Positions 23,784 to 59,436 of a stretch of DNA of 64,000 nt are shown one piece after another. The DNA comes from Bilabrum cf. latius. Lineage: Eukaryota. Position 1 is the stretch's first letter. The number at the start of each line of letters is the position of its first letter. The stretch is taken from positions 682,001 to 746,000 of the forward strand of contig OZ237747.1 of the NCBI GenBank assembly GCA_965178125.1. Reading direction: 5' to 3'. Made by a program: the position numbers and the translations under genes. A model generated the notes under the pieces. The model did not search any database and was not told the origin of the DNA. It saw only the letters and a list, made by a program, of their open reading frames with translations.

Positions 23784-26700
23784 ATGCGCAGTTCCGTTCC
23801 GGGAACTCTACGGAGTTGGCAGACTGAGTACGACCAGAAATATGACGATAAGATGAAAGATAATGCAGGGGCAAGTGGGACGTCAGTCTCAGACCCGCGG
23901 TCAGCCGCAGCCGCATCGACAAGAACCGCGTCGCAAGGTGCGCGGCAGGGATCGGCTGCTGACGGCTGGTACGATGAAACGGAGCCTCCGAGCGAGTACG
24001 GTGGCGTAATGATGGGAGATGCTAGCTTCGATGCGGGTACAAGTGGTTAGATCGACGGCGGGGCAGAGCAAGAGAGCAAAGACGCAACACCGCCGCGTCG
24101 CAACGCAGCAGCGGCTGCCGCCGTTCGGGCCAGCCTTTAGCAGACGCCTGAACCCAGACCGAAACCACCAGTATCAGCAGACATCGGCAACGGGTACCCG
24201 AGCGCAGCGTACGGCCCGTCCCGGGATGAATACCGCCCTCGCGGCCCGGAGGCCGGGGCCGGTGCTCGCCCCGGCCCTCTCTCAGACCACGAGTTCGTGC
24301 ACCTGGTGTCCTCCCTGAGAGCCCTCGGGTACGACGAGCCCGCGGACAGGGAGAGCGCGCCCCTCCTGCAGAGGCTGCTGGACGACCTGGTTGCAACCAC
24401 GGAGACCTACGAGGCCGTGCGCCAGAGGGCCGAGCGAGAGGCCTCGCTCAAGGAGGAGGGCGCCGCGGCGCTGGTTCCGCTGCAGACGGAGTGCGCCCGG
24501 CTGGTGCGTGAGAACAACCAGCTGCACCTGGAGCTCGTTCGCTAGAAGGAGCAGTCGGCCCAGCGAGGGCTGCGCGAGGAGGTCCAGGCGGGGCGCATGC
24601 GTGACGAGCTGACGACGCTTCGGTTCGTGGCCAAGCGCCAGAAGGCCGCCCTCAAGAAGGCGGAGCGCAAGGGGAGGCGCATGATGGCTCGCATCCACCT
24701 GCTTCGGTCCGACGAGGAAACCGCCGAGAGGCTGGGGCTCACAGGAGAGGGCAGCGAGGGGCTTGACGACTCCGAGTCCGAGTCCGAGGGCGACGACGAC
24801 GACGAGGGGCGGCGGGAAGAGGGGGAAGAGGGGGATGACTTTGACCCATTCGCAGAGGCAGACGCGCTCGCTGGTGTCAGGCGAGGGCGCGACGACGAGG
24901 ACGGGCCTCTCGGTGCGAGCGATGCCTCAGACCGCAGCGAGGGCGGGCCCATGGACCCCATGGCGGGGACCATGCGGCGCCCCCTGGGCAGCATGCTGCG
25001 CGGGAGCAGGACCGGCCTGGGGAACAGCAGGCCCCCGCACCGGCGCGCGCCTGGCTCGGACAGCGCCGAGGAGATGCAGGCGGAGCTGGAGGCGCTCAGG
25101 CAGGCCCTCGAACTGAGCAAGGGGGAGGTGGCCAGGGCACACAGAGCGCTGGAGGCCGCGGCGGAGGGCACCCGGGCCGCGGAGGGTGCAGCGCACGGTG
25201 CTGCTGCCGCGACGGCGGCGGCCGCTGCGGTGGTGGCAGCAGGCCGCGGCCATGACTGGTCACGCGGCGGCGCCCAAGGCGCCTCTGCTGCTGGGGGCCC
25301 TGCAGGACCAGAGGCCGAAGAGGCAAAGGCACGGGCAACCCGCCTCGAGGTGGAGTGCAGGTCGCTCAGGGAACAAGTGAGGGCCCTGGCGGATGAGCTG
25401 CGCGTGCAGGGCGGGGGCAGCTTGCTGGGTGGCGGGCCCGGATCCAGCAGGCCAGGACCAGGACGTGGATCTGGCAGCGCGGCCGCCCTGAGGTACAGCG
25501 GTGAGGCCAGCCCCAGCCGGGACGTGCAGACGCAGCGGCTGACGGCTGCGCTGGCGGCAGAGAGGCATCGAGCAGAGGAAGCAGAGAGGGAGCTGGACGC
25601 AGCGCGCACCGAGCTGCTCGCCGTGAGGTCGGGGGCCGTGTCAGCGGACGGGTCTGGCTCTGGGTCTGGCTCTGGCTCTGGATCTGGCGGTTCTTCGGGC
25701 ATGGGTGGTGCCGATGCGTCTGGGAGCGGGTCCAGCCGCGGAGGCCGCAAGAATGCCGTCGACGAGGACGAGGACGATGACCTGGCAGGGGAGGCCGACA
25801 GAGTGGCGGCATCGAGGGCCAGGGCTGCAGCCGTGGCCGCGCTGGCCGCCGCCAGGGACGAGGCGGAGGCTGCGGCACAGCGAGCCGCTGCCGCGCGCGG
25901 TGAGGCTGCTTCGGCCCGGGAGCGGGCGGCCCGGCTCGAGGAGCAGGCGAGGGAGGCGAAGGCGGCGAGGACGAGGGCAGTCGCCGAGGCCCGGGCCGCT
26001 GTTGAGGCGCTCACCACGGCTCGCGCAGAGCTTGAGGGGGAGAGGCACGGCCGCAGGTCAGCGGAGGCGAGGTGCGCCGGGCTGGATCGCGCGCGGCAGG
26101 AGCTCGAAAGAGACGCCGCGCAGGCGCGTCAGGCGGCCCGGAGGGCCGAAGAGGAGCTGGAGCAGGAGAGGAGAGCCAGGCTCAGCGCGGAAGAGGCCGC
26201 GGAGGAGGGGGATGCCGGGGCAGCGGCCGTGAGGCGCGAGCGGGACTCGCTGCGGGGCCGGACGACGGCACTGGAGGAAGAGAGGGACGCAGCGCGGCGC
26301 CGCGCAGACGATGCGGAACAAGAGGCGAGGGAGTGGCGGGAGCGCGCCGCTCGCGCGGCGGAGGAGGAGCAGGAGGCTAGGGAACACAAGGCCGAGTCGG
26401 AGGCCGCCACCGCCGAGGCCCGCGCCCAGGAGCAGCGCTGGAGGGCGCATGCCGCGGACGCAGAGGCCAGGGCACGCAAGGTGGAGGAGGAGCTGGCGCA
26501 CCGAGAGGCCACCGGGGGCGACCTGGGCTACGTCCCCGGGAGGGGTCCCGCGGACGGCAGACAGGACAGGGAGGTGGAGGACGACGGCACTCCGGATGCC
26601 ATCGCCAGCGCTGCCGTCCTCCGGAGCAGGCTCTCGGGCGCGAGGGAAGAGGCAGCCAGGCTGCGGGCCCGGGCTGCTGCAGCGGATGCGAGGGCGAAGG

Positions 26701-29273
26701 ACGCCGAGCAGGCGGCTGCGACGGCCCGGGAGCGGCGGGACCTGGCGACGAGCAGCCAGCGGGAGGCTGCTGCGCGGGCCCAGGAGTGCGAGAGGGCCAT
26801 CGTGGAGGAGAGGCACATGCGGTCGGAGGCGGAGCGGACCGCGCGGGAGGCCGAGGCGGGCCGCAGGCACACCGAGTCGCTGCTGCAGTCCGCGAGGAGG
26901 GCGCTGGAGGCCAGGGAACAAGCCAACGAGGGCGAGGGTGCCCAGCGCTCCGCCGAGATCGCCGCCCGGGCCGCCGCGGAGCGCCGGGCGGCCGCTGCCG
27001 ACGCCAGGGCGGGCGAGGCCGCCGAGGCCCTGAGGCAGGCCCAGGCCGCCGCCGAGCACGCCGAGCGTCGCGCAGCAGACGCCGAGTCCCGGGCCTCGGC
27101 CGCCCTGAAGGAGGCCTCCGAGGCGCAGGCCATCGCGGGGGAGGCGAGGGCGGCTGCGGCGCGGAGCGAGGCGGCGGCGGAGGCAGAGCAGGCCGCTCGG
27201 CAGCGCACCGCCAAGCAGCTGGAGCGGGCCGAGGAAGCGGTGACGAGAGAGGCCGCGGGCAGGGCACAGGCAGTGCGGGAGCGGGACGCGCTCGCCCAGC
27301 TGTGCGAGAGGTCCGATGCGTCGAGGCAAGAGGCGGAGCGGTCCGTGGAGGAGGCCGCGGGGGCCGTGGAGCAGTGGAGGAAGCGGTGCGACGAGGCGGA
27401 AGAGGCCCTGCATGAGGCCAAGGGGAGGGCTAGGGAGGCGGAGGAGGAGGCGCAGGCCGCCAGGAGCGCTCTGGCGGGCAGGGACGCAGCGGCGGATGAC
27501 GCGACCAGCAGAGCCGAGGCGGAGCTAGAGGCGGCTAAAGCGGCGCAGAGGCGCGAGGCGGACGCCCGGGAGGCGGCGCGCAGGGTGGAGGCCCGGCTGG
27601 AAGACGCGGAATCGAGGCTGAGGCAGGCGGCCCGCGACATCAACGCGCGCGACAGGGCCAACCAGGAGCTGAGGAGGGCCCTTGCCGAGCAGAGGGAGAG
27701 GGCGGCCGCTGCTTCCAACGAGGCGAGGGAGAGGGCGGCCGAGGTGGAGAGCACCGGGAGCGACATGCACGCGCTAGTGAGGCAGGCCCAGCAGCTGACC
27801 GCAGAGGCCAGTTAGGAGAGGCGGAGGAGGTCCGAGGCAGAGGCCGCGCTGGAGCAGGAGGCTGCAAGATCGGCGGCCCTGAGGCAGCGGCTGAGCGACG
27901 CGTCCAGGGAGAGGGGCCAGCTGGAGGCGGCCTTCCGAACGGCGTGCGAAGAGCGGTCCGCGCTGCTTGCACGGTGCGAAGCCGCGGAGAGCCTTCGAGC
28001 CGACATCGAGAGGCGAGCGGCGCGCGCTGCCAGCGGTCGTGCGCACGCCGAGGAGGCTGCCCAGCAGCTGGAGGCGGCGCTGCAGGACGAGAGGATGGCG
28101 AGGCACGCGGCGGAGAGCGCCAACGAGAGGCTGAGCGCAGCCCTAGGGGACGCGAGGGGTCAGCTGCAGGGCGTGGCTGCGGGGATGGGCGAGGGCGGGA
28201 GGGAGCAGCAGCGGGCCGGCGCCACGCCCACGCAGCTGGTGGAGGCGGCGGCGCACGCCCGGGAGCTTGCTGCTGCTCGGCAGGAGGTGGAGCGCTGGAG
28301 GGCGTCGTGGGAGGAGAAGAGGGAGGAGTGCCAGCGGATGCAGAGGGCGGTGCGGGAGCTGCAGCTGCGGTGCGCCTCTCTGGAGCGGGTATGCGCCGAG
28401 GAGCGCATGCGGAACATCACGGCGCCGCGCGGTTTCGGCGGCGGGGTTGCTCCTGTCGACACAGGCCGGGGGGACGTGGGCGACGTGGACCGGTCCGGGT
28501 CAGGATCGGAGCACAGCGGCGGTCATGGCAGCAGTCACGGGCGGGTGGGTGGCTCCCAGGGCGGGTACGGGGACGGTGCAGATGCTGCCGAGGGCGATGA
28601 CGTGGCATCCGTGCCCATGGTGAGCGCTGACGTCCATCGATTCCTGGATGAGGAGGACGACGAGGAGGACGAGCAGGGGGCGGGGTCTGCTGGGCAGCGC
28701 GCCGGTGGCACGAGAGTCGGGGTGTCGATCCGCATGTCCAGGGACAGGGACAGGAACAGGGGTGGGGGTGGCGGTGGAAACCGGCAGGGCGATCTTGCCG
28801 GGTCGGAAGGATCCCAGGGAACAAGCGGGTCGGACGGCGTGGGCCAGGACCAGGACCTGCGCGGGGCTGCGCGAGCCCTCGAGGGTGTCGGCGGCAGCGG
28901 CAGGCGCAGCGGTATGACGAGTGGTTCTGCAAGTGTGACGAGTGAGAGGGATCGGTCGTCTCGATCCCGGATCGGCGTGTCTCACGGGCGCGGTCCCGGC
29001 GGGGCGACGGACGGCGCAGCGGGGTCGCGGCCCAGCACCGCCTCGAGCAGCGGCGGCAAGGGGCGTGGGGCCGGTGAGGCCGGTGCGAGGGCGGGTCACC
29101 AGGGACTTGACGCGAGCGAAGACGGGGAGGGTTCCCTGGCATCGTTCGAGAACGAGCTGGGAGAGGCTCTGGGGGCCGGATACGGTCGTGATGGCGACGA
29201 AGACGGCGAGGGCGAGGGATTAGGCGAGGACGGGGAGGACAACGACGATATGGATCAAGACGAAACGGAGTAA
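23784..29273 (+). CDS. CEP135/BLD10-like centriolar coiled-coil protein (4 in-frame TAG; ends in TAA)
   Basis: LRALGYDEPADRESAPLLQRLLDDLVATTE...PLQTECARLVRENNQLHLEL matches the CEP135 N-terminal signature (LGY..L..E..PLV.KLF.DLVHTTE...ENARL.RENN.L.LEL) and is followed by a long A/E/R-rich coiled coil. TAG at 24048, 24138, 24543, 27813; TAA at 29271-29273. Alternative start at 23853. Confidence 0.75.
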
Positions 29274-29633
29274 AACCGCGGTGCTAATGGGCGCAGTCTG
29301 AGCTACCTGTTGGTGCGTGTTGGCCTGTGACTGCTATCAAATTTGCTATTTTATCGATGCCCCTGATGACGTTCGTTCGGTGATGAAATCTGGATTTACT
29401 GGCTTGCAAAAATGCACGCAACCTCGAGTTGCACCTCGATCCTCCATTTGTCTCATTTTCAAGCTGAATATAAAGCCTAGAGGCTCACTGAGAAGACATT
29501 TATACTCTCTGTAAGATTTCATGGCGATGTGGTCCACGATTTTACTTCCTCCTGCCCGATTTCTAGCAATTTTTTGGATGCTCGATCGCATCACGAACTC
29601 TTCGACATTTCATGAGCATGACCAGCGCAGGTA

Positions 29634-32600
29634 ATGTCGTCCGTGCGAGCAGCGGCCCGAAAATGCCGACGGTCTGGCAGTAAGGTGGCAGCAGCGTTGT
29701 CGCAACTGCTCCCTAAAAGGTCGAAGGCGATCCACGAGGGAATCGTGGGGACATGCAGTGGATCAAGCTATGGCTCTGGGAACGGGAGCTCGAATCGGAG
29801 TGAAGCTGGAATGCCCTTTGGACTGTATGCATCGTTAGCCGCTGCGGCAGCAATTGGCTCCACTGGAACAAGCACTCGATCGCAGGGAGAGGATTTTGAT
29901 GTTGAATCTGTGCGAGCTGCAGAGCTCATGCTGCAGCGCGCTGCAGAGCAGGCTGAGTCTGGTGCACATGATTCTTCTCGAATTGGTAGCGCCTCCTTAT
30001 CACCTGACGGGGCTTTTGTAGCTGAACGGTCGGAATTTTTCTCTGCGGCAGTGGCCACTGCGAAGCGAACCGCATCGGAGCGGCAGTCCGCAGAGGCAGC
30101 CCGGCTGATGCGGCAGTCATCGAGCCCTACCGTTTCAAAACGGGAGGCCTGGACTCTGTAGAACAAAGCTGATGCGCTTGCGAAGGAGGCGGCCGCACTA
30201 GCTGCCGTGGAGCGGTCGAGTCGGGGGCCGTCCAGTGCACTCGTCACAGCCTTTCGGCAAGGCGAGCACGCGGCCATGCTTGCCATGTAGAAGCGTCTCG
30301 AAGCATCGAACGCAACCGCTGCTGGATCTGCCTCCGTAGCAGCAGACGCTTCCGAGCTGGGGGACGCTGGGATCGCAGCCGAGCTCCGCAGACTCGGGGA
30401 GCTGCTCGCCGTCGCGGTTGCAACCGAGGAGGCGGCGGCCGCGAGGGATGCCGAGGCCAGGGCCCGCTTCTAGGACCGGCAGCGGGCCACGGCGGCCATC
30501 AGAGCAGAGAGGAGGGCCCACCGAGCCTCGCTCACCCGCGCCTCCCTGCAGGCCAAATTCGCGGCGGAGCAGGTTGAGAGGCACGTGGAGGAAGCCTAGT
30601 AGAAGGCAAAGGCGAGGGCGAAGGCAGAGGCAGACAAGCGGGTCGCGGCTCTCCGGGCAGTCCGGGCAGAAGCGGCGCTGGCAGCTGCTGCCGCCCAGCA
30701 GCTCTCGACTGCGGCGCAAGAGGCCTTGATTCGGGCTCGGCTGGGCGTGCTCGACACTGTGGCATCTGGGCTCGTGCGTCTGGAAGCCTCCATTTCCAAG
30801 GCGCGTGCGCAAAAGGAAGCGACTGAATCGATCGAGAAGGGCGTCGCGCTGGCGCTGGAGGACGCAGAAGCTGCTGCAGCCGCCATCAGCACCATCGTGA
30901 AGGCTGAGGCAGGCTCCGCCAAACAGGGGCGCCGCGCAGATTGGGCCGTCTTGCAGCAGGCTCTCGCTCTCATGGGAGCATCCCTGGATGGGGCGAGGCT
31001 GGGTGGGCTTGCCGCTGGGAGCAGGTCCGGCCCCGGGAGCGCGGCGCTGGGGGCACTGCAGTCTGCCGCGAGGCAGGCTCACACCCTGGCCGATGCGATC
31101 GGTGCCATGGCGGAGGCAGACGATGCCGCAGCGCTGGGAGCCACCAGCGCACGCGCTGCACTGGAGGCGCGTGCTGCTGCTGCCGAGCTGCGGGTAGGGG
31201 AACTGACGTCGTCCCTCCGGGAGGCACAGGCGCACGCTGCGATCGCCGAGCACGCGCTGACCATGTCAGAGGCCGCCCGCAAGAAGGAGGCCAAGGAATC
31301 GGCGAGGAGGGAGGGCGAGGCTGCCAGCAGGAGGCACAGGATCGCAGTGGCGTACCTTGAAGCAGCCGACGAGGCCGAGGCCACCAAGCGTGCTGCCGCC
31401 AGCGCTCAGAGCAAGCTTGAGGGGATGCTGGCCTCTGCCATTGAGGCTGGCAAGGAGCAGAAACTGGCCACTTGCAGGGAGCAGGGCAGGCGCATGCGAG
31501 CGGAGGCCGATTTGGAGGACGCAAAGCTGACGGAAGCTGCTGTCGAGCTGGTCGGGGCCAGCATCGGCAAGCTGATGGAGGCCTTCCAAACCATGCGAGA
31601 GGAGAAACAGGTGCAGCAGCAGGAGTCCAAGACGGAGGAGGGGACTATCGAGGCGAATGATGAGAAGGACTTGAAAGCTAATTCCAGCGCTGGATCCACC
31701 GGTGCCTAGCCAGCCCCCTCATCAGAGCCCAGTGACTTGGACTTGGCGCAGTCTGCCAGCAGCATGGCCTCTCTGCTGCAGTGGGCCGAGGACGTGGCGT
31801 CGCTTGCAGAGTCAGCCGCTCAAAAAGCGGATGATGACGTCAAGCAAGCGGAGCAACTTGCGGGCGCGCAGAGCAAGCGCGCGGAAACCGCCGAGGCAGC
31901 TGCGGCGGCAGCGATTCGAGAGCGCGACGCTGCAACGAACGGCCAGAAGCTCGCCCGGATTGCGCTGGGCAAGGCTCTCGACATGGTTGAGGCTGCAGAG
32001 CAGAACGAGAAGGCCTACCGAGCGCAAATCTCAGACAGTCTGGCAGACGCCGCGGCGGAGGCGGAGGAACTCCTGGAGATGATGATGGCTCGTGCAGAGG
32101 CCAAGGTGGAGAGGGAGGTGCTCGTGGGTCTTGACATGGCCTGCACCGGCCTCTGCGTCGCGGAAGACCAGCGGCAGCGGCTGGATGAGCTGTCTGCTCT
32201 CGGAGGAAGGCTGCTGGGCACGGCTGCCTCTAACTCGGATCTCGTGCATCGGCTGGATGAGGCCAGGAGGCAGGAGGCAGACGAGGCCGAGGCAAGGCTA
32301 GAGCTGGCCATTGCCGACCATGCGTCCGATGTTGCGGATGCCTTGTGGGCGCTTGAGAAGGCCGTCTCTCAGAAAGAGGAGGCCGTCGCAGCATTCGAGA
32401 TGTCGCGCATGCAGGCGCGCGCCCAGGCGTCAAAAACAGATGCTGTCATCGAGCAGCTCATTGAGGAGAAGCTCAAGTCGAATGCCACGATCAAGAAGCA
32501 CGAAGACGATGTCAAGAACAAGGACAGGCAGCTGGCCCAGGCAAGGTCTTAGGCAGATGCCGCTCGCGCCGAGCTGACCGAGGTGGCACTGCAGGTGGCG

Positions 32601-33386
32601 GCGCTGGAAGCGGCCAACAGCGACCTCCATTCCGTGACTGAGCTGGCCACCAACGTCGCCATGGAGCGTGGTAGGCTGCTTGAGGAGACGCGGGACCAGC
32701 TGTCCGTAGCCCAGAGCAAGCTTGCCGCGAGCGACGAGGAGGTCAAGCGGCTGCAGGGCTCCCTCGAAGCGATGGACGCGGAGGTGCAGCGCAGCAAGGA
32801 CGCGGTCAAGGGTGCCGAGCGTGCGCTGGATGCTGCGCAGAGCAAGCAAGACATGGTTGGGACTGGCGCCAACGACAGCAAGAGCTCAGCCGCTATCGCG
32901 CTGGCAACCCGAGACGACGGAGCCGTGCTCCAGGACGACATCTACGCTTCTGTCGTGGACGCCAACGCTGCCGTTGCACTCGAGGAGGCAGATGCCGCAA
33001 AGGCTGCCAGGTCGGCAGCCGAGGCCAGCCTCAAGCAGGCTGCCTACGACCGTGACGCTGCCCGGGCGGAAGTGTCTAGGCTTCGGGAGCGGCTGTCCAT
33101 CGCGATGCGGCAGCAGCAGCGGATTCGCAAGCGGCTCGAGTACGCCGTTTCGCAGGAAATCTCCCAGCGCAGCGCTGCGTAGGGCGCACTGCAGGCAGCC
33201 AAGGCGGCCCTCATGAAAGCAGAGCAGAGGGCGGAGGAGCTGGAGAGCCAGCGTGTTGAAGCAATGCACAAACGGTCTGTCACGACGACGAGGCCAAGGG
33301 CGGTCCCAGTCGCCGGTGGGGATGAAGACGGTTCAGTAGCTGCCATTGAGGCTGAGGGGTAGGCGGGTGCAGGCGGGCGGCAGTGA
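29634..33386 (+). CDS. About 1250-aa Ala/Glu-rich coiled-coil protein of unknown function (9 in-frame TAG)
   Basis: One frame runs through TAG at 30159, 30288, 30471, 30597, 30600, 31707, 32550, 33180 and 33360, with continuous coiled-coil composition across each TAG. TGA stop at 33384-33386. Confidence 0.75.
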
Positions 33387-33529: not shown

Positions 33530-34474
33530 TCATAGCTTTGCCCTGCTGGGCAGAGTCCCGTAGACTGGCAGTGCAGACTTGTCTCCTCCCGGCGGCCCCA
33601 GCAGCGGCTTGTACACGAGCGAGCTGCCGCCATCGACAGCCCACGTCTGCGCCGTCACGTAGGATGATCCCTCCGACAGCAAAAACACAACGGCCGATGA
33701 TGTTTCTTCCACGGTCCCAAGGCGATTGCTTGGCAATACCTTCACGATTTCCGGCAAGAGAACATCTGCTGCGTCGCCGTAGTTTGCCATCGCCGACTCA
33801 GAATAGATGATGCCTGGTGCCACAGCATTCACTCGCACTCCTGCCGGGGCCCATTCGGCAGCAAGGGTTTGTGTCAGGGATACTACACCCGCTCTACTAG
33901 CTGCACTGTGAGCAAAGCCAGGGAATCCTGTGTTAAGCTCTAGCACGATGGACACGATAGAGCCGCCATGCTCGCTCATCCACTGCGTGTAGCATTCGCG
34001 ACACATAAGGAACGTTCCCACAAGATTCGTCTCAAGCACAGCGTGCATCCCATTCCGAGAAATGCTCTCAGCTGGGCAAATGTACTGTCCTCCGCCGTTG
34101 CCTACCAAGCCATCGATTCTGCCGAAAGCCTTCAATACGCCAGAGACGAACGCGGCACACTGCTCCTCCTTGCGAATGTTGAGCGCTTTCGCCATAAGTC
34201 TGCTTGAAACGGGTAAGGAGCCCAATGGGCCTTTGCGGGTATAGCTGGACTGCTCTGCCTAGAACTTCGCTCCTACAAGGTCCCGCCCGGCCTCTTCGAG
34301 GTTCGACAGCTTCCGACTTCCTATGGCCACACACCCACCAAGCCTGAGAATCTCGGAAGTGATCTATTTGCCTATTCCAGTTCCTCCACCTGTGACGATG
34401 AAAACTTTTCCCTTCAAGAGATCATCGCGAAAAACGCTTCGGTACTTGCCGCTCGCCTCACGGGCTCCTGCCAT
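33530..34474 (-). CDS. PECR: Peroxisomal trans-2-enoyl-CoA reductase-like SDR with PTS1 (-AKL); 2 in-frame TAG
   Basis: YRSVFRDDLLKGKVFIVTGGGTGIGK, NGGGQY, AHSAASRAG, AAEWAPAGVRVNAVAPGIIYS and a C-terminal AKL-TGA. The Rossmann motif is connected to the rest of the protein only through TAG at 34364 and 34259. Confidence 0.85.
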
Positions 34475-48457: not shown

Positions 48458-49446
48458 TCACACCAGCAGGACTGCGTTGATGCAGCCGTCATTCTCTGGA
48501 ACATTCGTGACCTGGGCGTACTTGCCCCAAACAACCTTGCCTGACGGTGTGACGAGTCCGAGGTCGCTGACATTCACCTCGATGACTGTCCCCTTGGTGA
48601 TCACGCCGAGGGTCGTGTACATCTGAGAAGAGGGGTTCTTCTTGACACCCAAAATATCGAGCTGCACGGTGGTTTTCAATTCCGGGTGGGTGACGTTGGC
48701 CTTCTTGAACCGGAGTCCCATGGGCCTGATGAACCGCTCGTACTTGGGTGGCTTGCGGGTGAAGCCCTCGCCCACGTACGTGACTTTCGTGACCATGCGC
48801 TTCCACGCCTTCTTCTGCCGCTTGCCGGTCTTGATGACCTTGAACATCTCGTCGTCGGCGACGGGCTTGACCTTGGGAACCGGCACGGACCACTTGCCGG
48901 CCTTCTCCTTTCGCTTCTGTTTCACAGTGTTGGAGAGGACCTTGGCGCGAGCAGAGCCATCTCGGTCAAGCAAATACGCTGGGAGAGCGAGCTCCGCCTT
49001 TGGCTCCTTCTTCTTTTTTGCCTTCGCCTCCTTCTCTGAATGCTCGGCAATCCTGTGAGAACATGGTGAGGTTGATCTGGCAAGCATTGCATCAAGGTTA
49101 CACTTCCACAACATCAAATAAATTAATCTGCTATCTTACGTTTTCTTCATCTGAATCTTCTCCTTGTATCGCTTCTGATGAATCAGTTTGGCTCTAATTC
49201 CACGCGCTTTCTTGGCCATCTGGGAAGATACATGGGCTGCGCGCGCCTCTCGCTTGCGCTGTTTTTCATTATGATCCAAGCGCTTGCCGTAGCGCTTCTA
49301 CCACAGCTCCATGTGCTCATTTTGGGGCTGCGATCGCGAGTGAGAATCAAGGTACACACAGAAAACCCGTAATAATCCATTCTTTCGATACTTTACGCAG
49401 TGAAGTAGAGATATAATAGTGATATCAAATGATTTTAGCTAACCAT
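48458..49446 (-). CDS. NSA2: Ribosome biogenesis protein NSA2 (exons 49446-49444, 49327-49140, 49052-48458; 1 in-frame TAG)
   Basis: [67 protein letters not shown] and the canonical end [18 protein letters not shown] at 49298-49300. Confidence 0.95.
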
Positions 49447-49805
49447 TGTATCTGGAACGTATTATTCTGATCGCAGTCTTCCAAAAGGTGTTCCCGAACC
49501 GAACTATGAACAATTCCGGTTATTAATGTAACGAAATGAATCATAACTCAAACATGGAGGTTGTCAACATTTCCTCCAACAAATAGCTAGGAAGGCAGTG
49601 TCATTGAGCACTGCGTGGGTGACTTATTTTAAAGTATCTATTGTGCGCCTATAGGCTCTGAGAATATCAATAAGATTGACCGACTGCACCTGTGAAGCTG
49701 TCTTGGTTGCCACCAACGGGTGTCGACACACCGAGTAGCCAAGGAGCAGGTTGGGTTTAGCAATATTGCGTAAGCTTTCTACGCTGAATTAATTTAGTTG
49801 CCAGA

Positions 49806-52800
49806 ATGTCCTAGCGTGGTCCAACGATGGATCGCGCCGGGAGATAGCGCGAAGCAGGCTAGTTTGTGTCGACAGGGTTGGACCCGCAGTAGGATCGAGG
49901 CAGCCTGCCCAGCACCCCGCTGGCTCAAGTTCGCCACGACCCTGGATTGGGGGATCACGTAGACGATGGCAGGGGTACCCCTGTTTGGACCAGAAAGGGT
50001 AAGATTGAGCTACCCTTTACCGCCGACAGTTGCATGTCTGACCGTGAAGCACCCGAGCAGCTTGCCTGTAGATGAGCATCATTCTCACTTGTCGCAGTTG
50101 AGGGCGATGCAGATGATGGTCTAGAGGGGTTTCGAGGTGGTCTTTACAAACGCAAAGATTTTTTGGGGGTCGAAGAGGAAGGTAAGAGATACACGCGGTA
50201 TGGTTCAAGCTTTGGGTGGCGTGTGTGCGACCACAAATCTAATTCCAGCCCCCCCCGCCTAGCGCTTCCGGTTCGCAGCTAAACTGCATCCAAGTCGCAC
50301 TTATTACTACCGCAAGCATGCCGATTTGGACAGGCTTGTGGAGCAGTGCAGCAAGCGATTGGAAAAGGACCCGGACTCCGTCAAGGCGCTCTCCATCCGC
50401 GCCTCTTGCTTGGTAAAGAAGAAAGACTGGGCCAGAGCCCTGGCAGATTACGACCGGCTGCATGGCTTGCAAGGGGGCAGCGTGACCTTGTTCTACCACC
50501 GGGGCATGTGCAACGAGCGACTCAGCCATCTTGACGACGCCATCCGCGACTATACCTCCGTGCTGGAGCTGGACCCAGATCACGTCAACGCGGCGTACGC
50601 AAGGGGGTCCTGCCACAACCTCAAGGGGAACTTTGGCCGCGCGATCGAGGACTACAACCACGCGTTGCTGCGAGACAAGGTGAAGGGCAAGACGCAGGGA
50701 GGGGCGGCGGGGGCGAGGAGAAGCCCCTCGTCCAACAGGAAGGGTTCCTTCCTGGTGGGCGCCAACGAGTACGTCATTCGCAGGGAACAAGAGGTCAGGG
50801 AGCGCATTGCAAAGGGACTCACGCCCAAGCCGGCCACCATCGCCTCCGCGCTTAGCGACGTGCCACGGGGTGCCAGCGTGGCCACCGCGCTCTTGGAACA
50901 GCCCCCACCCGGGGGTCGGGGGGGACCCAGGCAGGACGGGGGGTCACACGGTGACACTGGTCTCCGCACACTCTCCAGCATGGGTCTGGGCAGCCGGGAT
51001 TCTAGCTCCGAATCCAGGTCAGGCGGCCCGTCCACGCAGCCGAGCCCCATTGCAGGCAGTGCCCATAGCGGAGCCGGCGGCGCCGCGCAGGCCAGGTCCG
51101 GCGCCGTATCCCCCGGATCTCCTGGGAGCGGCGGCATGCTGGGGGTGCAGTCTCCGCCTCGGCTCCCTGGCCAGAGGGAGGGCGAGGGCTCAGGGAACAG
51201 CGGGCGTGGGCCTGGTGGGGCGGCCGGCGGCAGGGGCAGCGGCGCGCAGTCTGGGGGCTTCTTGTCCCCTGAAGTGGGAAGGACCCCTGCTGCGCACGGT
51301 GCGCGGGGTGCGGGCGACCGGGATGGAGAACAAGGCAGGACCCGGAAAGCCGGGGGAGCGAGCGCTGGAATTGGACCTGGGGCAGGGGCAGGGGAGGGGA
51401 TCGATGGGTCGGGAAAGGGAGGTGTGGGCGGCAGCTTCTTCCCGCCAGAGACGCCCGGCGCTGCACCGCAAGGAAATGCACCCGGTCCCAGTGAAGACGG
51501 CGACTCGTCGCGCCCTGGATCCATCCGTCGCCCGCGTACATCCTCGTCTGAGAGCGCGGGCGGGCTGGGAATGGCCAGCGGCATCCAGGCGGCCATGACG
51601 CCCACCAACGCGGGGGCGGGCACGGGATCGGCCAGGAGCACGCCGGTGTCTGCCCCACGATCGCGCGGCGCCCCTGGTTCCGTTCGAGAGTCCTCCTCCT
51701 CCTCCTCCGGTGGAAGAGGCACCAGCCGCACCAGCGCCTCGTCCGCTGCTACGGGAGGGAGCAGGAGGCCCTCGGGCGTGTCCGCGGCCGGGTCCGCTGC
51801 GGCGGACAAGCACCACGCCGAGGGCTTCGCGCTAAGGAAAAGCGGTGACTTCCGCGGCGCCATCGAGGCCTACACGCGGGCGATCGAGGCGGATCCCAGG
51901 CACTTCAAGGCCTACTTCAACAGGGGCTTCGCGCACGACAAGCTCAAGTCTTTCATGCGTGCCATCGGGGACTACACGCAGGCGCTAGCGATCGACCCCA
52001 AGAACGCCTACGCGTTCTACAACCGCGGGATTTCACACGACAGAGCGGGCATGTACGCGGAAGCCATCCGGGATTTCACGAGCGCAATCGAGCTGCTGCC
52101 CCACAACGCGGACTTCTTCCACAACCGAGGCTTCTGCTACCGCAAGCAAGGCGAGTTCGAGAAGGCGATTGGGGACTACTCCCAGGCGCTGCGGATCGAC
52201 CCCCGGCACTTCAAGGCCGTGTACAACAGGGCCTTCAGCTACGACAAGCTGAGTCGGTTCGCGGACGCGGTTGCGGACTACACGGCCGCCATCAGCCTGG
52301 ACCCGCGCAACTCCAACGCCTTCCACAACCGAGGCAGCACCCTCGACAAGATGGGCCGCGCGGAGGAAGCCATCGTGGATTTCTCCAAGGCGATCCAGCT
52401 GGACCCCCGCGCGGCGTGCTCGTACAACTCGAGGGGCCTTTCAAGGGACAGGACGGGAGAGAGGGACGCTGCCATCGCCGATTTCACAGAGGCGATCAAG
52501 CTGGACCCTTCAAACCCCGTGTACAGGCACAACCGGGGCTTCTGTCACCGTAACCGCGGCGATTTCGCCAAGGCCATCGAGGATTATTCCCTCGCGATCG
52601 AGTCGGACCCTTCCAACGCGGCAGCCTACTCCAACCGAGGCTACGCGTGGCGCAAGCTGGGCGAGTACGAGCGAGCCGTGGCGGACTACACCAAGGCTCT
52701 GGACCTTGACCCCGACAACGTGAAGACGTACAATAACCGGGGCTATTCGTTCGCCAAGAGTGGCAAGTACGATCTTGCCATCGCCGACTACAGCCAGGTC

Positions 52801-53433
52801 ATCAGACTTGACGCGACCAACAGCCACGCCTTCCACAACCGAGGCATTTCGTACGACAAGAAAGGACAGTTCGAGCAAGCCATTCGGGATTTCACCAGGG
52901 TGCTCGAGCTGGACAGCTCCAACGCGAACGCATACTTCAACCGAGGCTCCACCCACGACTCGATCGGCGCGTACGACAAGGCCATCGCTGACTACACGAG
53001 GGCACTCGAGCTTGACAGGCAGGTGTCGGGCTCGCCCCCGAATGGGCCGCAGGGGACAGGCGCAGGGCAGGCTAGCGCGGGCGGTATCGCGGCAGGGAGC
53101 GGCGACCCTCCCGTGCTGGCTGGGAGGGGCGATGTGGCACGGGGTGGTGTGACGAGAGTGGGCGCCACTGCTGCCCCCGGAGGCAGGGGTGGCAGGAGAC
53201 AAGGTGAAGCCGGCGGGAGAGCAGCGGCAGGCCCTGGCAGAGGTGCAGTGGGCCGACAGCGGGGCGGGGCTCCAGGCAGCAGCGCCACGCCTTCCGTGGG
53301 CGCCGGCAGCCGGCCAGGCTCATCGGCAGCGTCCAGCGCCAAGCAGCCACCCAGAAGCGGTGCACGTCGCACTGTCGGCGGCAGAGGCTATGCAAGTGCT
53401 CGAAGACCTGGCGGTCGCGGTGCCAGAGGCTGA
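49806..53433 (+). CDS. TPR-repeat protein with about 3 N-terminal and 12 tandem C-terminal TPRs (exons 49806-49998, 50098-50181, 50279-53433; 4 in-frame TAG, all in exon 1)
   Basis: 34-aa repeats AY.NRG..Y...G.Y..AI.DYT.A..LDP at about 51800-53015. Two phase-1 GTAAG..CGCAG introns. TAG at 49812, 49845, 49860, 49890; TGA stop at 53431-53433. Confidence 0.85.
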
Positions 53434-53683
53434 GCCGGCGGGGTAAGGTGGGCGAGAACTTTTTTTTTCCAACTTGCACTGTGTTGTATGAACTTGAACC
53501 TGGATTGTGTCCAATTTGAGGTGTTGCCACAGGCATAGGCCTCTGTTGCTTTTGCAGCTGCATTTATTCTTCGCGAAAGCTTGCTCTGGCGTCAATGCAC
53601 TCAAACAAGCAAGGCAGTCGCCTGCAGCCCCAGCCGCTGCAGCGGACTGGGACCCCCTCCATGACCTATCAGGAGCCACACGC

Positions 53684-54069
53684 TCAGTTCAGCTGCGAAA
53701 ATGGAAAATGCTTGTGCAAAGAATACAAACGATAGCATTGCACGGTCTAGCGTTGCCTGGCCTAGTCCGTTAGGCAAGCTCTGCGTTGCCGTTGGTGCTC
53801 ACCTTCTTGAACCCGATCAAAGGGGCACGCTCGCGGAAGCACCGACGGCAGATGTTCAAGTGATACTTTCGGATGAGGCCGATGCGTGCAGAGCACACGC
53901 GGCTGCGCGACCATAACAAGAGGAGGAGCTGGAAACATTGTGATGGCAGTGTCCGAGGCGTGCAATTGGTCCCCACTTGATGCGTCAAATAGGCGAATCA
54001 GGTGCCTACTCACCACTGGCGGCCACCCTTAGCGCGATCGCGCGGATGCGTGTTCTGGAGCGAAGGCAT
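53684..54069 (-). CDS. RPS29: 40S ribosomal protein S29 (uS14), 54 aa (exons 54069-54014, 53902-53803, 53692-53684)
   Basis: Spliced product [54 protein letters not shown] with a CxxC..CxxC zinc motif; GTGAG..CAG introns. The only gene in the window without a TAG. Confidence 0.92.
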
Positions 54070-54228
54070 ATCTCTCCCAATTACCCTATATGTCTCGAAG
54101 GTCGCGTTGGTGGTTGCTGATCCGATCCGTGCGCGGCGCCGATTTGTTGCGTTCTATTTTGTAGAAAGCTGATTATTTTGCCGGATTCCTGAAACAGTCC
54201 ACTTTACCTGACTTTCGGCGAAAACAAT

Positions 54229-54844
54229 ATGGCTGTTAGGCCGAAGAAGCTTTTTGATGCCGTATAGGACCTTCCGCCGAGGAAGGGATTCCCCAATATT
54301 GTGAAATCGTGAGATAAGCAAAGCAACGGAGCTGCTGGTACACTCTGCCCTTTGTTATCCTCAGTACGACACCAACGATTTTGGGTAGCATGCAAAATTG
54401 ATATTGCAGTGTATATGGGCCAAATGTTAGGCGGGGCCCTGGTGGTGTGGCCCTGCTGGGCATTCTCGTAGGCACCACAGTTGTGTCTTGGGCGTACTGG
54501 TTGCGCAGCCGGCAGGACGATGAGTGAGAACATCCGAACGTAGCAGCTGTTGCCATGTAGAATGTTTTCGTGGTTGTTTCATGCTTCCCGAGTTACTGCT
54601 GGTCCTGAACGTGCACCGCAGCTACTTTCGGCTGGCAAAGATGAACGAGAGGTACGAACGTGCGCATGTCTTGCAAGCTAGGGAAGAAGCTTCGTATGCC
54701 AAGAGATTGAAGCGGCAAATTGACCTTGAGCGAGAATGGAGTAAGGATGTGCCTGGTTACGTAGTGAACCAGAGCGTGTATTACACAAAGAAGGGCGAGA
54801 GGCCGCACATTGATCCTACGGACCCTCGCATGAAGCGCCACTGA
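54229..54844 (+). CDS. NDUFA13: Mitochondrial complex I subunit NDUFA13/B16.6/GRIM-19 (exons 54229-54308, 54410-54523, 54622-54844; 1 in-frame TAG)
   Basis: V*DLPPRKGFPNI (family motif QDMPP.GGY), RRGPGG plus a TM helix, LQARE and KDVPGYVVNQSVY. Phase-consistent GTGAG..CAG introns. TAG at 54265-54267; TGA stop. Confidence 0.85.
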
Positions 54845-55126: not shown

Positions 55127-56801
55127 TCACTTGCCGGCGCCGCCGGTGGCAGCTCCAGGCGCGGAGGCGGCAGCAGCAGCAGCGGCCGACGCACCCGGCG
55201 CATCCGAGTCGTAGTTGAGCGAGGGCCGCAGCCATCGCTCCACCTCCTCCACGGGCATGCCCTTCCTGGAGGCATAGTCCGCGATCTGGTCCTGGCCCAG
55301 CTTGCCAACGGCGAAGTACTCGGCCTCCTCGTTGGCGAAGACAAGCGCCGACACGGCGGACGCGGGCAGCATCGCGAGCGAATCGGTCAGCTTGAGGCCG
55401 ATGGACTCCTCCACATTCAGCAGCTTCCACATGGTGTTCTTCTCCGTGTGGTCGGGCTGCGAGGGGTACCCAGGCGCGGGCCGAATCCCGTCGTACTTGA
55501 CCTTGAGGAGATCGCCCTTGGACAAAGTGGCTGCCTCCTCGGGCGCGAAGCCCCAGAGCTCGCGCCTCATGCGCGCGTGCAGCTGCTCGGCGAATGCCTC
55601 GGCGATCCGGTCCGCCAGCGCCTGCAGCATGATCTTGGAGTAGTCGTCGTGGTCCGCCTCGAACTCCTTGAGCTTGTCCTCCACACCGAACACGCCCACA
55701 GCGAACGCGCCCAGGTAGTCTGCCTTGCCGCTCGCCTTGCTGGCGATGAAATCGCTCAGGCACAGGTAGGGCTCGTCCGTCTCCTTCTCCGCCTGCTGCC
55801 GCAGCCCGGCGTACACTGCCTGCGCCTTGGCACCCTTGCGGCCCTCCTCGTCGTCGCCCGTCTCCGTGCCGTAGATCTCGATGTCGTCACCGACAGAGTT
55901 GGCAGGGAAGATGCCGCAGACCCCGCGGGCCTCCAGCCACTCCTCCTCCACGATCTGGTTGAGCATGGCGAGCGCGTCGTTGTGCAGCTTCTTCGCTTCC
56001 TCGCCCACGTCGGCGTCGTTGAAGATCTTGGGGTATCCCCTGTTCGGGTACTTGCCTCTGAGCTCCCATGTCTGGAAGAAGGGGTTCCAGTCGATGTAGT
56101 CGAGCAGCTCTGCGATGTTCTGGTCCTCGATGACGGTGATTCCCTTCGCCTTGGGCTTGGGGGGGTCCTTGCGCGCCGCCCAGTCGATCTGCATGCCCTT
56201 GCCCCTGACCTCCTCGATGGGTAGGTACACCCTGTCCTCCAGTCCGGCGTAGTGCTCCTCCCTCATCTCCTCGTACAGGTCATCGATCTCCTGCACGTAC
56301 TCTGTCCGCCTGGCCTTGTCCTCGTCCAGCAGGCTCTGCACCACCGTCACGGAGCGGGATGCGTCAAGCACGTGGATGACCGGGTGGTCCGTGGTGAAGT
56401 AGTGAGGGGCGACCTTGACGGCCGTGTGCATGCGCGACGTGGTGGCGCCGCCGATCAGCAGGGGCAGGTTGAGGCCGGCCTTGGCCATCTGCTTGGCCAC
56501 AAACACCATCTCGTCCAGTGAGGGAGTGATGAGGCCAGACAGGCCGATCACGTCCACCTTCTCCTCGATGGCCCTCTTGATGATCTGGTCGCAGGGCTGC
56601 ATGACGCCCATGTCGATCACCTTGTAGTTGTTGCAGCCAAGCACCACGCCCACGATGTTCTTGCCGATGTCGTGCACATCACCCTTGACAGTAGCCATCA
56701 GCACCTTGCCGGCGTACATGTCGTCCCCTGCGGTAGAAGGGTCCACTCCCATCTTCTCCATCTTGAGCTTCTTCTCCTCTTCCATGAAGGGGATCAGGTG
56801 C

Positions 56802-56835
<34 letters not shown>

Positions 56836-57428
56836 TCACCTGGGGCAGGAACATCTTGCCGCTGCCGAACAGGTCACCGACCACGTTCATGCCGCCCATG
56901 AGGGGTCCCTCGATCACCTTGAGTGGCACCTAGAGAAGCTGCCGGGCCTCCTCCGTGTCCTCGATGATGTACTTGGGCAGGCCCTTGACAAGGCTGTACG
57001 TCAGGCGCTCCTCGATCGGCTTGCTGCGCCAGGCCTCGGCAGACACGGCGGCCACGACCCCCCCGGCCTTGGCAGCGTCCGCCTTCTCCTTCTCAAGAAG
57101 CGACCGCTCGAGCAGCCTCTCGGTTGCGTCGTCCCTGCGACACAGCACGGCATCCTCCACGAGCTCGAGGAGGTCCTTGGGGATGTCATCGTAGACCTGG
57201 AGCATGCCCGCGTTCACGATGCCCATGTCCATGCCGGCCTGGGTTGCGTGGTACAAGAACGCGGAGTGCATCGATTCGCGGATCACGTTGACGCCGCGGA
57301 AGCCGAATGACAGGTTGGACACGCCGCCGCTGATCTTCGCGTGCGGGCACTGCTTCTTGATCTCGCTGCAGGCCTCGATGAAGTCCAGGCCGTACCGGTT
57401 GTGCTCCTCGATACCAGTGGCAATTGTC

Positions 57429-57460
<32 letters not shown>

Positions 57461-59436
57461 AGGGAACCCGACCTTGGGTCCCACCAGCATGTCGTAGGAT
57501 CGCTTGCAGATGCGGATCTTCTCGTCTCTGGTGGCCGCCTGGCCCTCCTCGTCGAAGGCCATGACCACACAGGCGGCACCGTAGCGCTTGACGAGCTTGG
57601 CGTGCTCGATAAACTTCTCCTCGCCCACCTTGAGGGAGATAGAGTTCACGATGCACTTGCCCTGGGCGTTCTTGAGGCCCATCTCCACGATCTCGAACTT
57701 GCTCGAGTCCACCATCAGAGGCACCCGCGCGATGTCAGGCTCGGTGGCAAGGATCCGCAGGAATTTCTGCATGGCCTTGACACCGTCCAGCATGCCGTCG
57801 TCCACGTTGACGTCGATGACCTGTGCGCCATCCTCCACCTGCTTGCGCGCCACCGCCATGGCCTCCATGTAGTTGCCCTCCAGTATGAGGCGCTTGAACT
57901 TGCGGCTGCCCGCGATGTTGCACCTCTCGCCGATGTTGACGAACCCGAGCTGGTCGTCCACCTTGGTGTGCTCCAGCCCCGACAGAATCATGACGGGCTC
58001 CCTCTCCTTCCACTCGCGGGGCTTGTGCTTGGACACAGCCGTGGCGATGGCGTTAATGTGCTCAGGGGTCGACCCGCAGCACCCTCCCGCGAGGTTGAGC
58101 AGCCCTTCCTCCGCGAAATCGCCCAGGTCCTCCCCCATCTCTTCCGGGGTGGCGTCGTACCCACCCATGGCGTTGGGCAGGCCGGCGTTGGGGTACGTGA
58201 AGAAGTACGTGTCGGCGAAGGCAGCGAGCCTCTGCACGAACGGCTTCATCTGCTTGGCGCCGAGTGCGCAGTTGAGGCCGACGGCGAAGGGCTTGGCGTG
58301 CCTGATCGAGGTATAGAAGGCCTCGCCGGTCTGCCCGCTGAGAGTCCGACCGGACTGGTCCACTAGAGTGCCTGACACGAACACTGGAAGCTTCCTGCCG
58401 ATCTTTTCGAACACCTGGTCCACGGCAAAGAGGGCCGCTTTTGCGTTCGCAGTGTCGAAGATGGTCTCCACCAGCACAACGTCGATGCCTCCCTCGATGA
58501 GTGCCTCGACTTGCTGGCTGTACGCCACCACCAGCTCGTCAAAGGTCACGTTGCGGACGGAGGGGTCCTCCACGTCGGGACTAATACTGAGCGTGCGGTT
58601 GGTAGGGCCCACGGCGCCCAGCACGAAGCGGGGCCTGCTGGGGTCCTTCGCCGTGATCTCGTCGCAGGCGCGGCGCGCAATCCTGGCGCTCTCACGGTTC
58701 AGCTCAGGGACGAGGTCTTCCATTCCGTAGTCGGCCTGGGCAATCGTAGTGCCGCTGAAAGTGTTAGTTTCCACGAAGTCTGCGCCGCCCTCCAGGTACT
58801 GGCAATGGATTTTGTGGATCACATCGGGCTGCGACAACGTCAGCACGTCGTTGTTGCCCTTGATGTCCATGTTGTAGTCCACGAAGCGCTCGCCGCGGAA
58901 ATCTTCCTCTTCGAACTTGTGCTTCTGCGAGATAAGTTCAGAGGCATTTTACGAGCTTCGGGCGCAGTAGCATCCAACGCACAGCTAATCGCTCTCGAGC
59001 GCAAGCAACACACGAGGTCGCAACCGGCCGCATTAAAAATGCCAGACGGTGGTCTCTGCCCGTAAATCTCATAATGTAATTTGTACTGTATGCGGGATGG
59101 CAACTCCACGCCAACGAATAAGTCCAAACACCATGTGCCCCCGCCCACCAACTCGCTTACCTGGATCATAGTCCCCATGGCACCGTCGATCACCATGATT
59201 CTCTGCTTCAGAGTTTTGTGAAGATACTCAAAGATATCAGACTTGCCTGCATTGGAGAAAATAATGGAGTTGTCGGGCTGGAGGCGTAGGAGTATGCAGT
59301 CGCTGACGTCGCCAACTACCGCAGCCGAATAGATCCATGATTAACTCCTCTTACCGCGAATATACGTCTCCCCGGTGTCAGCAGAACTAGAGTTTGCTGG
59401 CCCGGCATCGCCTCCTGCACCCGATACTGCTGCCAT
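55127..59436 (-). CDS. MTR: Cobalamin-dependent methionine synthase MetH (exons 59436-59355, 59246-59161, 58924-55127; 1 in-frame TAG)
   Basis: [45 protein letters not shown]12-binding [20 protein letters not shown] and the activation-domain motif [12 protein letters not shown] at 56930-56932 lies within the cap domain ([18 protein letters not shown]); TGA stop at 55127-55129. Confidence 0.97.

Follow-up and report, generated by a model that had tools for sequence, protein, structure and literature searches.

Nuclear DNA with UAG read as glutamine, very probably from a heterotrophic stramenopile related to Cafeteria

Reassignment of UAG alone to glutamine is known from ciliates, with two origins in phyllopharyngeans and a further case in Protocruzia tuzeti, and from the fornicate Iotanema; the accessible part of the source that lists these cases contains no stramenopile (PMC11687900). 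In Iotanema spirale (Fornicata, Metamonada), UAG is glutamine and UAA is a stop (PMC5304391; PMC11687900, available sections), and the GTS motif in the eRF1 of this organism is altered by T32G (PMC5304391, available sections). Nuclear UAG has other meanings in the rhizarian exLh, where it encodes leucine, and in Scotinosphaera, where it encodes serine (accessible part of PMC11687900). Code 15, in which TAG is glutamine, is also used by crAss-like phages as a late-gene strategy in bacteria (accessible part of PMC9523058). The nuclear genome of Cafeteria roenbergensis has a GC content of ~70% and 1.67-1.89 introns per gene, and in the accessible portion of its source only the mitochondrial code is flagged as non-standard (PMC6972860).

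In the window, i.e. the whole stretch of 64,000 nucleotides analysed here, 95 in-frame TAG codons were found among the 18,254 codons of 17 long frames, together with 162 CAA and 566 CAG. TAG makes up 11.5% of the glutamine-type codons and is present in almost all genes, and frames of 1138-2206 aa appear once it is read as sense. The length of open reading frames was also considered as a test of the code and was rejected as non-specific. TAG as sense opens 24 frames of at least 500 aa and nine of at least 1000 aa; length alone does not discriminate, because TGA as sense gives comparably long frames (32 and seven, respectively). The frame ends point to TGA and TAA as the stops, with 17 of 20 frames ending in TGA and three in TAA. 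A code in which both UAA and UAG are glutamine (table 6), the outcome in the majority of lineages with altered meanings of these codons, is extremely improbable here. The two codons usually change jointly (accessible part of PMC11687900), and TAA is scarce in such GC-rich DNA (338 against 844 TAG in raw counts of both strands), but about 27 in-frame TAA would be expected from the CAA:CAG ratio of 162:566 alongside 95 TAG, and none was found in the 18,254 codons. Moreover, reading by table 6 barely lengthens the frames, adding 14-81 codons at few ends, and two orthologues have their terminus at the identical residue, marked by TGA in the window but by TAA in the sister species. At the level of sequence, the code pattern is confirmed as that of NCBI table 15, in which UAG would stand for glutamine and UGA (dominant) and UAA remain stops.

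The window carries eukaryotic nuclear DNA, and its GC content is as high as the initial annotation had described (0.583-0.735 per 4-kb bin, positions 24001-60000); ciliate macronuclear genomes are typically AT-rich. The same annotation had noticed centriolar, peroxisomal, flagellar and complex I genes, all of which were recovered. The centriolar one is a CEP135/Bld10-like coiled-coil gene (23712..29273, + strand), a stop-to-stop frame of 1853 aa with four in-frame TAG and a TAA end, whose N-terminus matched PDB chains named 'Centrosomal protein, putative' (E 1e-8), 'Basal body protein' (1.8e-6) and CEP135 (1.9e-4). An Ala/Glu-rich coiled-coil ORF of no family lies at 29622..33386 (+; 1254 aa, nine in-frame TAG, TGA end). 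The peroxisomal genes comprise a short-chain dehydrogenase (33530..34531, - strand; adh_short_C2, E 6.8e-41; two in-frame TAG, TGA end) and a Pex2/Pex12 and RING peroxin-like frame (2356..4290, +; seven in-frame TAG). The translation of the dehydrogenase closes with ...SRAKL, a PTS1-like tail, and judging by this AKL tail the enzyme is likely peroxisomal. The peroxin-like frame is located outside positions 23784-59436, as is an importin-5-like gene (19356..22772, -; two in-frame TAG). A gene with PAN and glycoside hydrolase 79-like domains (Glyco_hydro_79n, 1e-13; PAN_4, 6.8e-7) occupies 34611..36554 (+) and has three in-frame TAG and a TGA end. The 782-aa ORF at 36637..38985 (-), with five in-frame TAG, ends in TGA and its sister orthologue in TAA; it is of no known family, and even relaxed Pfam thresholds produced no reliable match for this frame or for a 606-aa frame.

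The flagellar gene encodes axonemal dynein intermediate chain 2 (DNAI2; 39033..40988, +), with exons at 39033-39131 and 39312-40988 separated by a 180-nt GT..AG intron, five TAG (at 39345, 39372, 39426, 39579 and 40347) and a TGA end. Next to it lies a 2206-aa frame of no known family (40989..47609, +) with 21 in-frame TAG and a TAA end, which is 38% identical to its orthologue on metagenome contig L001 and is overlain without gaps by a transcript-run contig spanning 41143-47829. The ribosome-biogenesis gene NSA2 (48458..49446, -; Ribosomal_S8e, E 3.2e-37) has three exons, introns of 87 and 116 nt, a single TAG at 49298-49300 and a TGA end. A TPR-repeat protein gene (49774..53433, +) has introns of 99 and 97 nt close to its 5' end. 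The ribosomal protein S29-like gene (53563..54100, -), assigned by eye from its zinc-ribbon C-terminus, has introns of 110 and 111 nt, no TAG, a TGA end and a poly(A) loose end at 53563. The complex I subunit is GRIM-19/NDUFA13 (54229..54844, +), with three exons, introns of 101 and 98 nt, a TAG at 54265-54267 and a TGA end. Its Pfam match, obtained with one exon as query, was under the 25-bit cut-off (PF06212, E 5.5e-5, 23.6 bits), and 17 of its 19 PDB matches at E<=1 were NDUFA13/B16.6 chains (best E 0.0013). B12-dependent methionine synthase, MetH (55127..59193, -), consists of a main exon at 55127-58927 and an upstream exon from 59164, and ends in TGA; its only TAG (56930-56932) links two abutting table-11 ORFs. 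Spliced contigs, compared over the 20 kb of 39100-59099, define nine GT..AG introns (87, 97, 98, 99, 101, 110, 111, 116 and 180 nt), and the 5' intron of MetH, derived from a loose contig end, measures ~236 nt. The earlier intron range of 87-261 nt holds from 87 to ~236 nt; none of the introns seen within 39100-59099 reached 261 nt. A scan of the window against Rfam families gave no match and no rRNA.

The identity of the amino acid was read from alignments. At DNAI2 residue 123, TAG occupies an invariant glutamine column (119 of 119 homologues among the matches listed). The seven nearest homologues have glutamine at residue 72, as do the four nearest aligned ones, including Cafeteria, at residue 45. 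The residues opposite TAG are His or Asn at position 379 (111 of 119 homologues among the matches listed) and Thr, Ala or Ser at position 54 (74 of 119 among the matches listed). The TAG of MetH falls in a variable column, and its flanks align without gaps to 18 of 18 homologues. In GRIM-19, the TAG stands opposite a glutamine of the B16.6 chain, in a sole and weak PDB match (E 2.5). A closer comparison is offered by the sister species, represented by metagenome contigs L001 and L003, in which DNAI2 is identical at 96% of amino acids (tblastn) and 81% of nucleotides. Across three orthologous genes, 20 TAG positions are unshared with these contigs, and CAG or CAA stands opposite 16 of them; the remaining four face Ala, Ser and, twice, Glu, and two additional TAG are common to both. 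Alignments of the 2206-aa frame with three L003 frames (27-50% identity over 32-151 residues) were excluded from this count because they were too weak. DNAI2 is distantly related on contigs L002 and L004-L010 (35-66% local identity), which gave no usable codon evidence.

Spliced GT..AG contigs were present in runs X5, X6 and X7, from two studies, and absent from DNA run X1, one of the DNA runs (X1-X4) that contain the entire window; the RNA status of X5-X7 is a predicted label, with X5 labelled 'probably DNA', and no run containing the window is recorded as RNA. Runs X8-X14, which contain a small share, were left out of this comparison, and differences in depth between genes were not counted as evidence of expression. 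No base differences were listed in the sequencing runs on 39100-59099, which covers eight TAG codons (in DNAI2, MetH, NSA2 and GRIM-19). TAG is unchanged in the spliced transcript contigs, and RNA editing is therefore unlikely. The probability that UAG specifies an amino acid other than glutamine, or reflects low-level readthrough or editing, is close to negligible. The four unshared positions facing Ala, Ser or Glu and the several TAG in variable columns would fit another amino acid, but the 16 glutamine codons opposite unshared TAG and the TAG at an invariant glutamine do not, and a codon of such frequency in almost all genes, unaltered at eight sites in transcript contigs, speaks against readthrough and editing. 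The claim of the initial annotation that UAG is a sense codon is borne out by its count in the long frames, the gap-free MetH flanks, the unshared-TAG comparison and the transcript contigs. Taken together, these results demonstrate that UAG is translated, stands for glutamine and is unedited in spliced mRNA, and that the trait is common to the sister species.

UAG might still be ambiguous in the manner known from Condylostoma and karyorelict ciliates, with a sense meaning inside genes and, depending on context, termination at the ends of some. TAG stops are invisible by construction, because TAA and TGA were used to bound the frames, and TAG lies at most ten codons from the stop in two frames, the GH79-like gene (three codons upstream of its TGA) and the 1254-aa coiled coil (eight). 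The near-end TAG of the GH79-like gene, however, is glutamine in the sister species, and both proteins extend as far as a TGA or TAA. Of 18 frames, 16 either lack TAG or have none closer than 39 codons to the stop, and NSA2, MetH, DNAI2, GRIM-19 and the PTS1 dehydrogenase end in TGA with C-termini that fit their families (...AKL in the dehydrogenase). An ambiguous UAG is therefore considered very improbable, and a code with UGA and UAA as the stops is preferred.

The initial annotation had suggested a bicosoecid-like lineage outside the groups known to read UAG as glutamine, which the top named matches and two phylogenies support. The top named match of both MetH (71% identity) and DNAI2 (63%, among the matches listed) was the marine flagellate Cafeteria roenbergensis (Bicosoecida), ahead of the next named match by ~9 and 7 points, respectively, among the matches listed; diatom, labyrinthulomycete, pelagophyte and green-algal MetH matches were at ~57-62%. 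All 10 named organisms among the 120 DNAI2 matches listed are, we assume, stramenopiles. The importin search returned five distant matches of 24-27% identity, the best named being Phytophthora cactorum (25%). The named matches of the MetH, DNAI2 and importin searches, which we take to be stramenopiles and green algae, included no ciliates. The exclusion of ciliates rests on these best matches, because the trees were built without ciliate sequences. Trees of MetH and DNAI2, which had been proposed as a check, agreed with the searches. In the MetH tree (27 rows), the query is sister to Cafeteria and two metagenome rows with SH-aLRT 95, within a nine-row clade supported at 99. In the DNAI2 tree (50 rows), the query and L001 (100) belong, together with the Cafeteria clade, to a clade of 10 rows (99); oomycetes and ochrophytes fall outside it, and the query stem is long (0.48). 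Both are single-gene, 'quick' trees (SH-aLRT only), midpoint-rooted and built without ciliate or fornicate rows, and Cafeteria is the sole named member of the query's clade in each. Fornicates are anaerobes without classical complex I, and a fornicate origin is countered by the spliced NDUFA13/GRIM-19 gene and its transcript contigs.

The affinity to Cafeteria could reflect sparse named sampling or a long-branch artefact, with the organism belonging to another stramenopile group or supergroup. The single named taxon in the clade, the long DNAI2 stem, the quick single-gene trees and an importin too divergent to inform leave some room for this. Nevertheless, two unlinked genes (MetH and DNAI2) agree, the lead in identity holds over all other named matches, and a 34,402-nt metagenome contig of the Cafeteria clade carries both MetH and DNAI2, like the window. 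A placement away from bicosoecids is thus judged quite improbable. The matches and trees show an apparent stramenopile lineage, with a bicosoecid as its nearest named relative, and its exact position would be in or beside Bicosoecida (Bigyra, Opalozoa).

The explanation held with high confidence is that the window is nuclear DNA of a heterotrophic stramenopile related to Cafeteria, with UAG as glutamine and UGA and UAA as stops in the pattern of table 15. The code change may have arisen on the query lineage after its split from the Cafeteria clade, separately from ciliates and Iotanema; the standard code of the relatives is deduced from full-length predicted proteins and not from DNA. The predicted decoder of UAG is a tRNA-Gln whose CUA anticodon pairs with this codon but not with UAA, and eRF1 may have lost affinity for UAG. 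The tRNA gene scan found none in the window, L001 or L003, and the window contains no eRF1 gene. A tRNA-Pro(CGG), located on the unrelated contig L010, was the sole tRNA recovered. An independent origin of the code, as the initial annotation had proposed, is the most likely reading; it is supported by the Cafeteria affinity and by the absence of stramenopiles from the list in the accessible part of PMC11687900. No nuclear code change in a stramenopile was found in the literature searched, and the finding therefore adds a new lineage to a code variant already known. The arguments are evenly balanced on whether a nuclear stop codon is here seen reassigned for the first time in stramenopiles, as a clade-level trait beside Cafeteria in at least two species that arose in a GC-rich genome with UGA already the main stop. 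If so, the change would have started from a mutated tRNA-Gln(CUA) and passed through an ambiguous intermediate, rather than following AT-driven loss of the codon, and the organism, being aerobic and free-living and occurring in several sequencing runs, could become a tractable model for the uncoupling of UAG from UAA. Each lineage that splits the two codons is a natural experiment on their discrimination by eRF1 and tRNA, and a stramenopile case would add an independent origin to a major group without a reported nuclear code variant. In practice, standard-code gene calling truncates proteins at each TAG, so that MetH appears as two ORFs and DNAI2 is broken into fragments. Surveys of environmental eukaryotes will therefore mis-annotate this organism unless its code is inferred beforehand.

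Among the known systems, Iotanema shares the code pattern of the window. In both, UAG alone has become glutamine, with the same predicted route of tRNA-Gln(CUA) and eRF1 weakened for UAG, as far as the available sections on Iotanema extend. The two differ in supergroup and in the main stop, which is UAA in Iotanema, according to those sections, and TGA in the window (17 of 20). The window encodes a complex I subunit, whereas Iotanema lives anaerobically and has a reduced mitochondrion. The UAG-only ciliates share the reassignment and the route of detection through environmental genomes (accessible part of PMC11687900). They are alveolates, whereas the window's named best matches and both trees point to stramenopiles. 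In exLh and Scotinosphaera, nuclear UAG is likewise uncoupled from UAA, but the amino acid and the lineage differ, as the available descriptions indicate. The crAss-like phages, by what is accessible of their description, do not represent a cellular nuclear code, whereas the housekeeping genes of the window are eukaryotic and spliced. Cafeteria and the window are both GC-rich, with few introns and MetH of the unfused type, so far as the accessible account of Cafeteria goes. Cafeteria has glutamine at DNAI2 residues 45, 72 and 123, where the window has TAG, and its DNAI2 and MetH are full-length predicted proteins; with its genome sequenced, it would serve as a close standard-code comparator.

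Under standard stops several conserved genes of the window are broken, and the gene of the B12-dependent methionine synthase MetH (55127-59193, minus strand; five Pfam domains, E 1e-20 to 1e-114) falls into two abutting ORFs (55127-56929 and 56930-58948). Taking TAG as sense opens frames that are 1138 to 2206 aa long. Frame length by itself is no proof of such a reading: TGA, the commonest stop triplet on the two strands together (1535, against 844 TAG and 338 TAA), gives 32 frames of at least 500 aa when taken as sense, compared with 24 for TAG. The meaning of TAG is decided by the comparison of the predicted proteins with homologues. In MetH, the single TAG lies in a variable column, and the flanking conserved sequence is gap-free against 18 of 18 homologues. 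The gene of axonemal dynein intermediate chain 2 (DNAI2; 39033-40988, plus strand) contains five TAG codons, which correspond to Gln in 119/119 homologues at residue 123, in the 7 nearest homologues at residue 72, and in the 4 nearest homologues aligned at the site at residue 45. The homologues have His or Asn at residue 379 (111/119) and Thr, Ala or Ser at residue 54 (74/119), and these two TAG codons are neutral on the meaning of TAG. Across 17 stop-to-stop frames (18,254 codons), 95 TAG, 162 CAA and 566 CAG were counted, TAG making up 11.5% of Gln-type codons. Two adjoining short-chain dehydrogenase paralogues on the minus strand (4467-5765 and 5566-6705) have stop-to-stop frames that share 200 nt; by eye, one TAG of the former stands against Gln in the latter, in the motif GGQIAIVSS. 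A 425-aa fragment of the same organism's DNAI2 (P0121), present in a public protein collection with members that derive from a metagenome and from assemblies of public runs, has one TAG read through as Gln; therefore, at least one gene caller chose a TAG-readthrough model for that contig.

The same use of TAG was found in a sister species. Two metagenome contigs from one sample, L001 and L003, jointly carry a DNAI2 gene 81% identical in DNA, its protein being 96% identical in the best tblastn segments and 93.8% and 91.3% in pairwise alignments. Their long frames likewise require TAG as sense, with 37 TAG, 47 CAA and 120 CAG in 4206 codons. TAG positions were compared in three orthologous genes, namely the 782-aa ORF (36637-38985, minus strand), DNAI2 and GH79 (34611-36554, plus strand), leaving out the 2206-aa frame (40989-47609, plus strand), whose three alignments were weak. 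Opposite the TAG codons of the window, L001/L003 has a Gln codon 8 times, TAG twice, Ala once and Ser once; opposite those of L001/L003, the window has CAG 8 times, GAG twice and TAG at the two shared positions. With both directions combined, 16 of 20 unshared positions are therefore swaps between TAG and a Gln codon.

Of 20 frames, 17 end in TGA and 3 in TAA. Moreover, the 782-aa ORF and GH79 stop at a residue that is the same in the window, where the codon is TGA, and in the L001/L003 relative, where it is TAA, and table 6, in which UAA and UAG are both Gln, adds short tails and nothing more. Therefore, UAG encodes Gln, and UAA and UGA terminate. UAG might conceivably terminate at some sites as well, a use to which nothing in the 64 kb points.

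Seven sequencing runs contain at least half of the sampled words of 39200-49199, and four (X1, X5, X6 and X7) were compared with 39100-59099. The DNA run X1 contains this whole stretch in identical form and is not independent, because it may be the source. In three runs from two studies (X5, X6 and X7), contigs jump over nine segments (87-180 nt) that begin with GT and end with AG on the gene strand; none of these joints is present in X1. Such contigs are spliced transcripts, the RNA label of these runs being a software guess that marks X5 as 'probably DNA'. No base differences were listed for any of the four runs over 39100-59099, and the contigs span eight TAG codons (five in DNAI2, one each in MetH, NSA2 and GRIM-19) without a change of letter; TAG is thus present in mRNA. 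A MetH 5' intron of ~236 nt is indicated by a contig with a loose end at 58927 that resumes at 59164. Short introns, as described in the initial annotation, were recovered, its upper value of 261 nt not being found within the 20 kb compared. The first coding exon of NSA2 (49444-49446, minus strand) is, judging by splice junctions, apparently ATG alone, directly followed by a 116-nt intron. At 53563-54100 (minus strand), a small gene interrupted by introns of 110 and 111 nt, and marked by a poly(A) loose end at position 53563, encodes a C-terminal zinc-ribbon typical of ribosomal protein S29, as named by eye without a family search; it has zero TAG and stops at TGA.

The gene content read from the sequence by the initial annotation was matched. 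Besides MetH, the Pfam search identified an importin-5-like protein, a GH79 and PAN protein, a TPR protein and NSA2 (Ribosomal_S8e, E 3.2e-37). DNAI2 has WD40 matches, all under their curated cut-offs, and owes its name to homologues labelled dynein intermediate chain 2 by their sources. A dehydrogenase ends in AKL, and one exon of GRIM-19/NDUFA13 matches its family at Pfam E 5.5e-5 (under cut-off); in the PDB, 17 of 19 matches at E<=1 are NDUFA13/B16.6 chains. The N-terminus of the coiled coil at 23712-29273 resembles CEP135/Bld10 chains (best E 1e-8). The high GC also held, at 0.57-0.74 per 4-kb bin in the window and 0.583-0.735 over 24001-60000; the maximum of 0.735 (24000-28000) falls on the CEP135-like gene, in its coiled coil rich in Ala, Glu and Arg, where long spurious frames open on both strands. 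A 474-aa frame at 654-2078 (minus strand) with 5 in-frame TAG has weak sub-threshold matches (DDE_3, E 0.0015; Tc5 transposase HTH, E 0.022) and may be a pogo/Tc5-like transposase relic. The tRNA scan found no tRNA genes and Rfam gave no family match within the 64-kb window.

The suggestion that the lineage is bicosoecid-like, outside the known UAG=Gln groups, is supported by both proteins. For MetH, Cafeteria roenbergensis is most identical (71.1%), followed by metagenome proteins (70.6, 69.7 and 68.8%) and by named matches at ~57-62%, which we assign by organism name to diatoms, labyrinthulomycetes, pelagophytes and green algae. For DNAI2, with the window's own fragment set aside, the best matches lie at 70, 66 and 64%, Cafeteria, the most identical named organism, reaches 63%, and nine further named organisms among the 120 matches listed, which we take to be ochrophytes or oomycetes, reach 51-56%. 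The two phylogenies, proposed beforehand as a check, were computed in IQ-TREE 'quick' (LG+C20 PMSF, SH-aLRT support alone, midpoint root), and both place the window with the Cafeteria clade. In the MetH tree (27 rows), the window protein is sister (95) to Cafeteria and two metagenome rows, and all of these fall in a 9-row clade (99). In the DNAI2 tree (50 rows), the window and L001 group at 100 on a long stem (0.48) and share a 10-row clade (99) with the 6-row Cafeteria clade. MetH and DNAI2 occur together, as in the window, on a metagenome contig (34,402 nt) that belongs to the Cafeteria clade; importin homologues are too divergent to inform lineage. MetH of the window, Cafeteria and their clade is unfused (~1250-1350 aa), and the top matches by bit score (P0001-P0095) are mostly ~1900-2140 aa, with MetH as the C-terminal 1250 residues behind a long N-terminal extension, many carrying PF02007. 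Taxonomy look-up gives Cafeteria as Bigyra, Opalozoa, Bicosoecida, and the organism may lie either inside Bicosoecida or beside it.

Summarizing, the initial observation is confirmed and its inference supported: a known code variant occurs in a lineage where it was previously not known and is common to at least two species. The full-text literature searched, with most subscription journals outside its reach, contained no stramenopile with a reported nuclear code variant. Cafeteria has 1.67-1.89 introns per gene at a GC content of ~70%, and passages of its genome report flag the mitochondrial code alone as non-standard (PMC6972860). UAG-but-not-UAA as Gln is described, in discussion passages of one source, for two phyllopharyngean ciliate lineages, Protocruzia tuzeti and Iotanema spirale, along with reassignment of UAG to Leu in a rhizarian and to Ser in Scotinosphaera (PMC11687900). 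UAG=Gln in the present lineage is most likely of independent origin. UAG would be read here by tRNA-Gln(CUA), together with a changed eRF1; for Iotanema, placed in Fornicata by the look-up, excerpts of the original report describe a predicted CUA-anticodon tRNA and a change in the GTS motif of eRF1 (PMC5304391).
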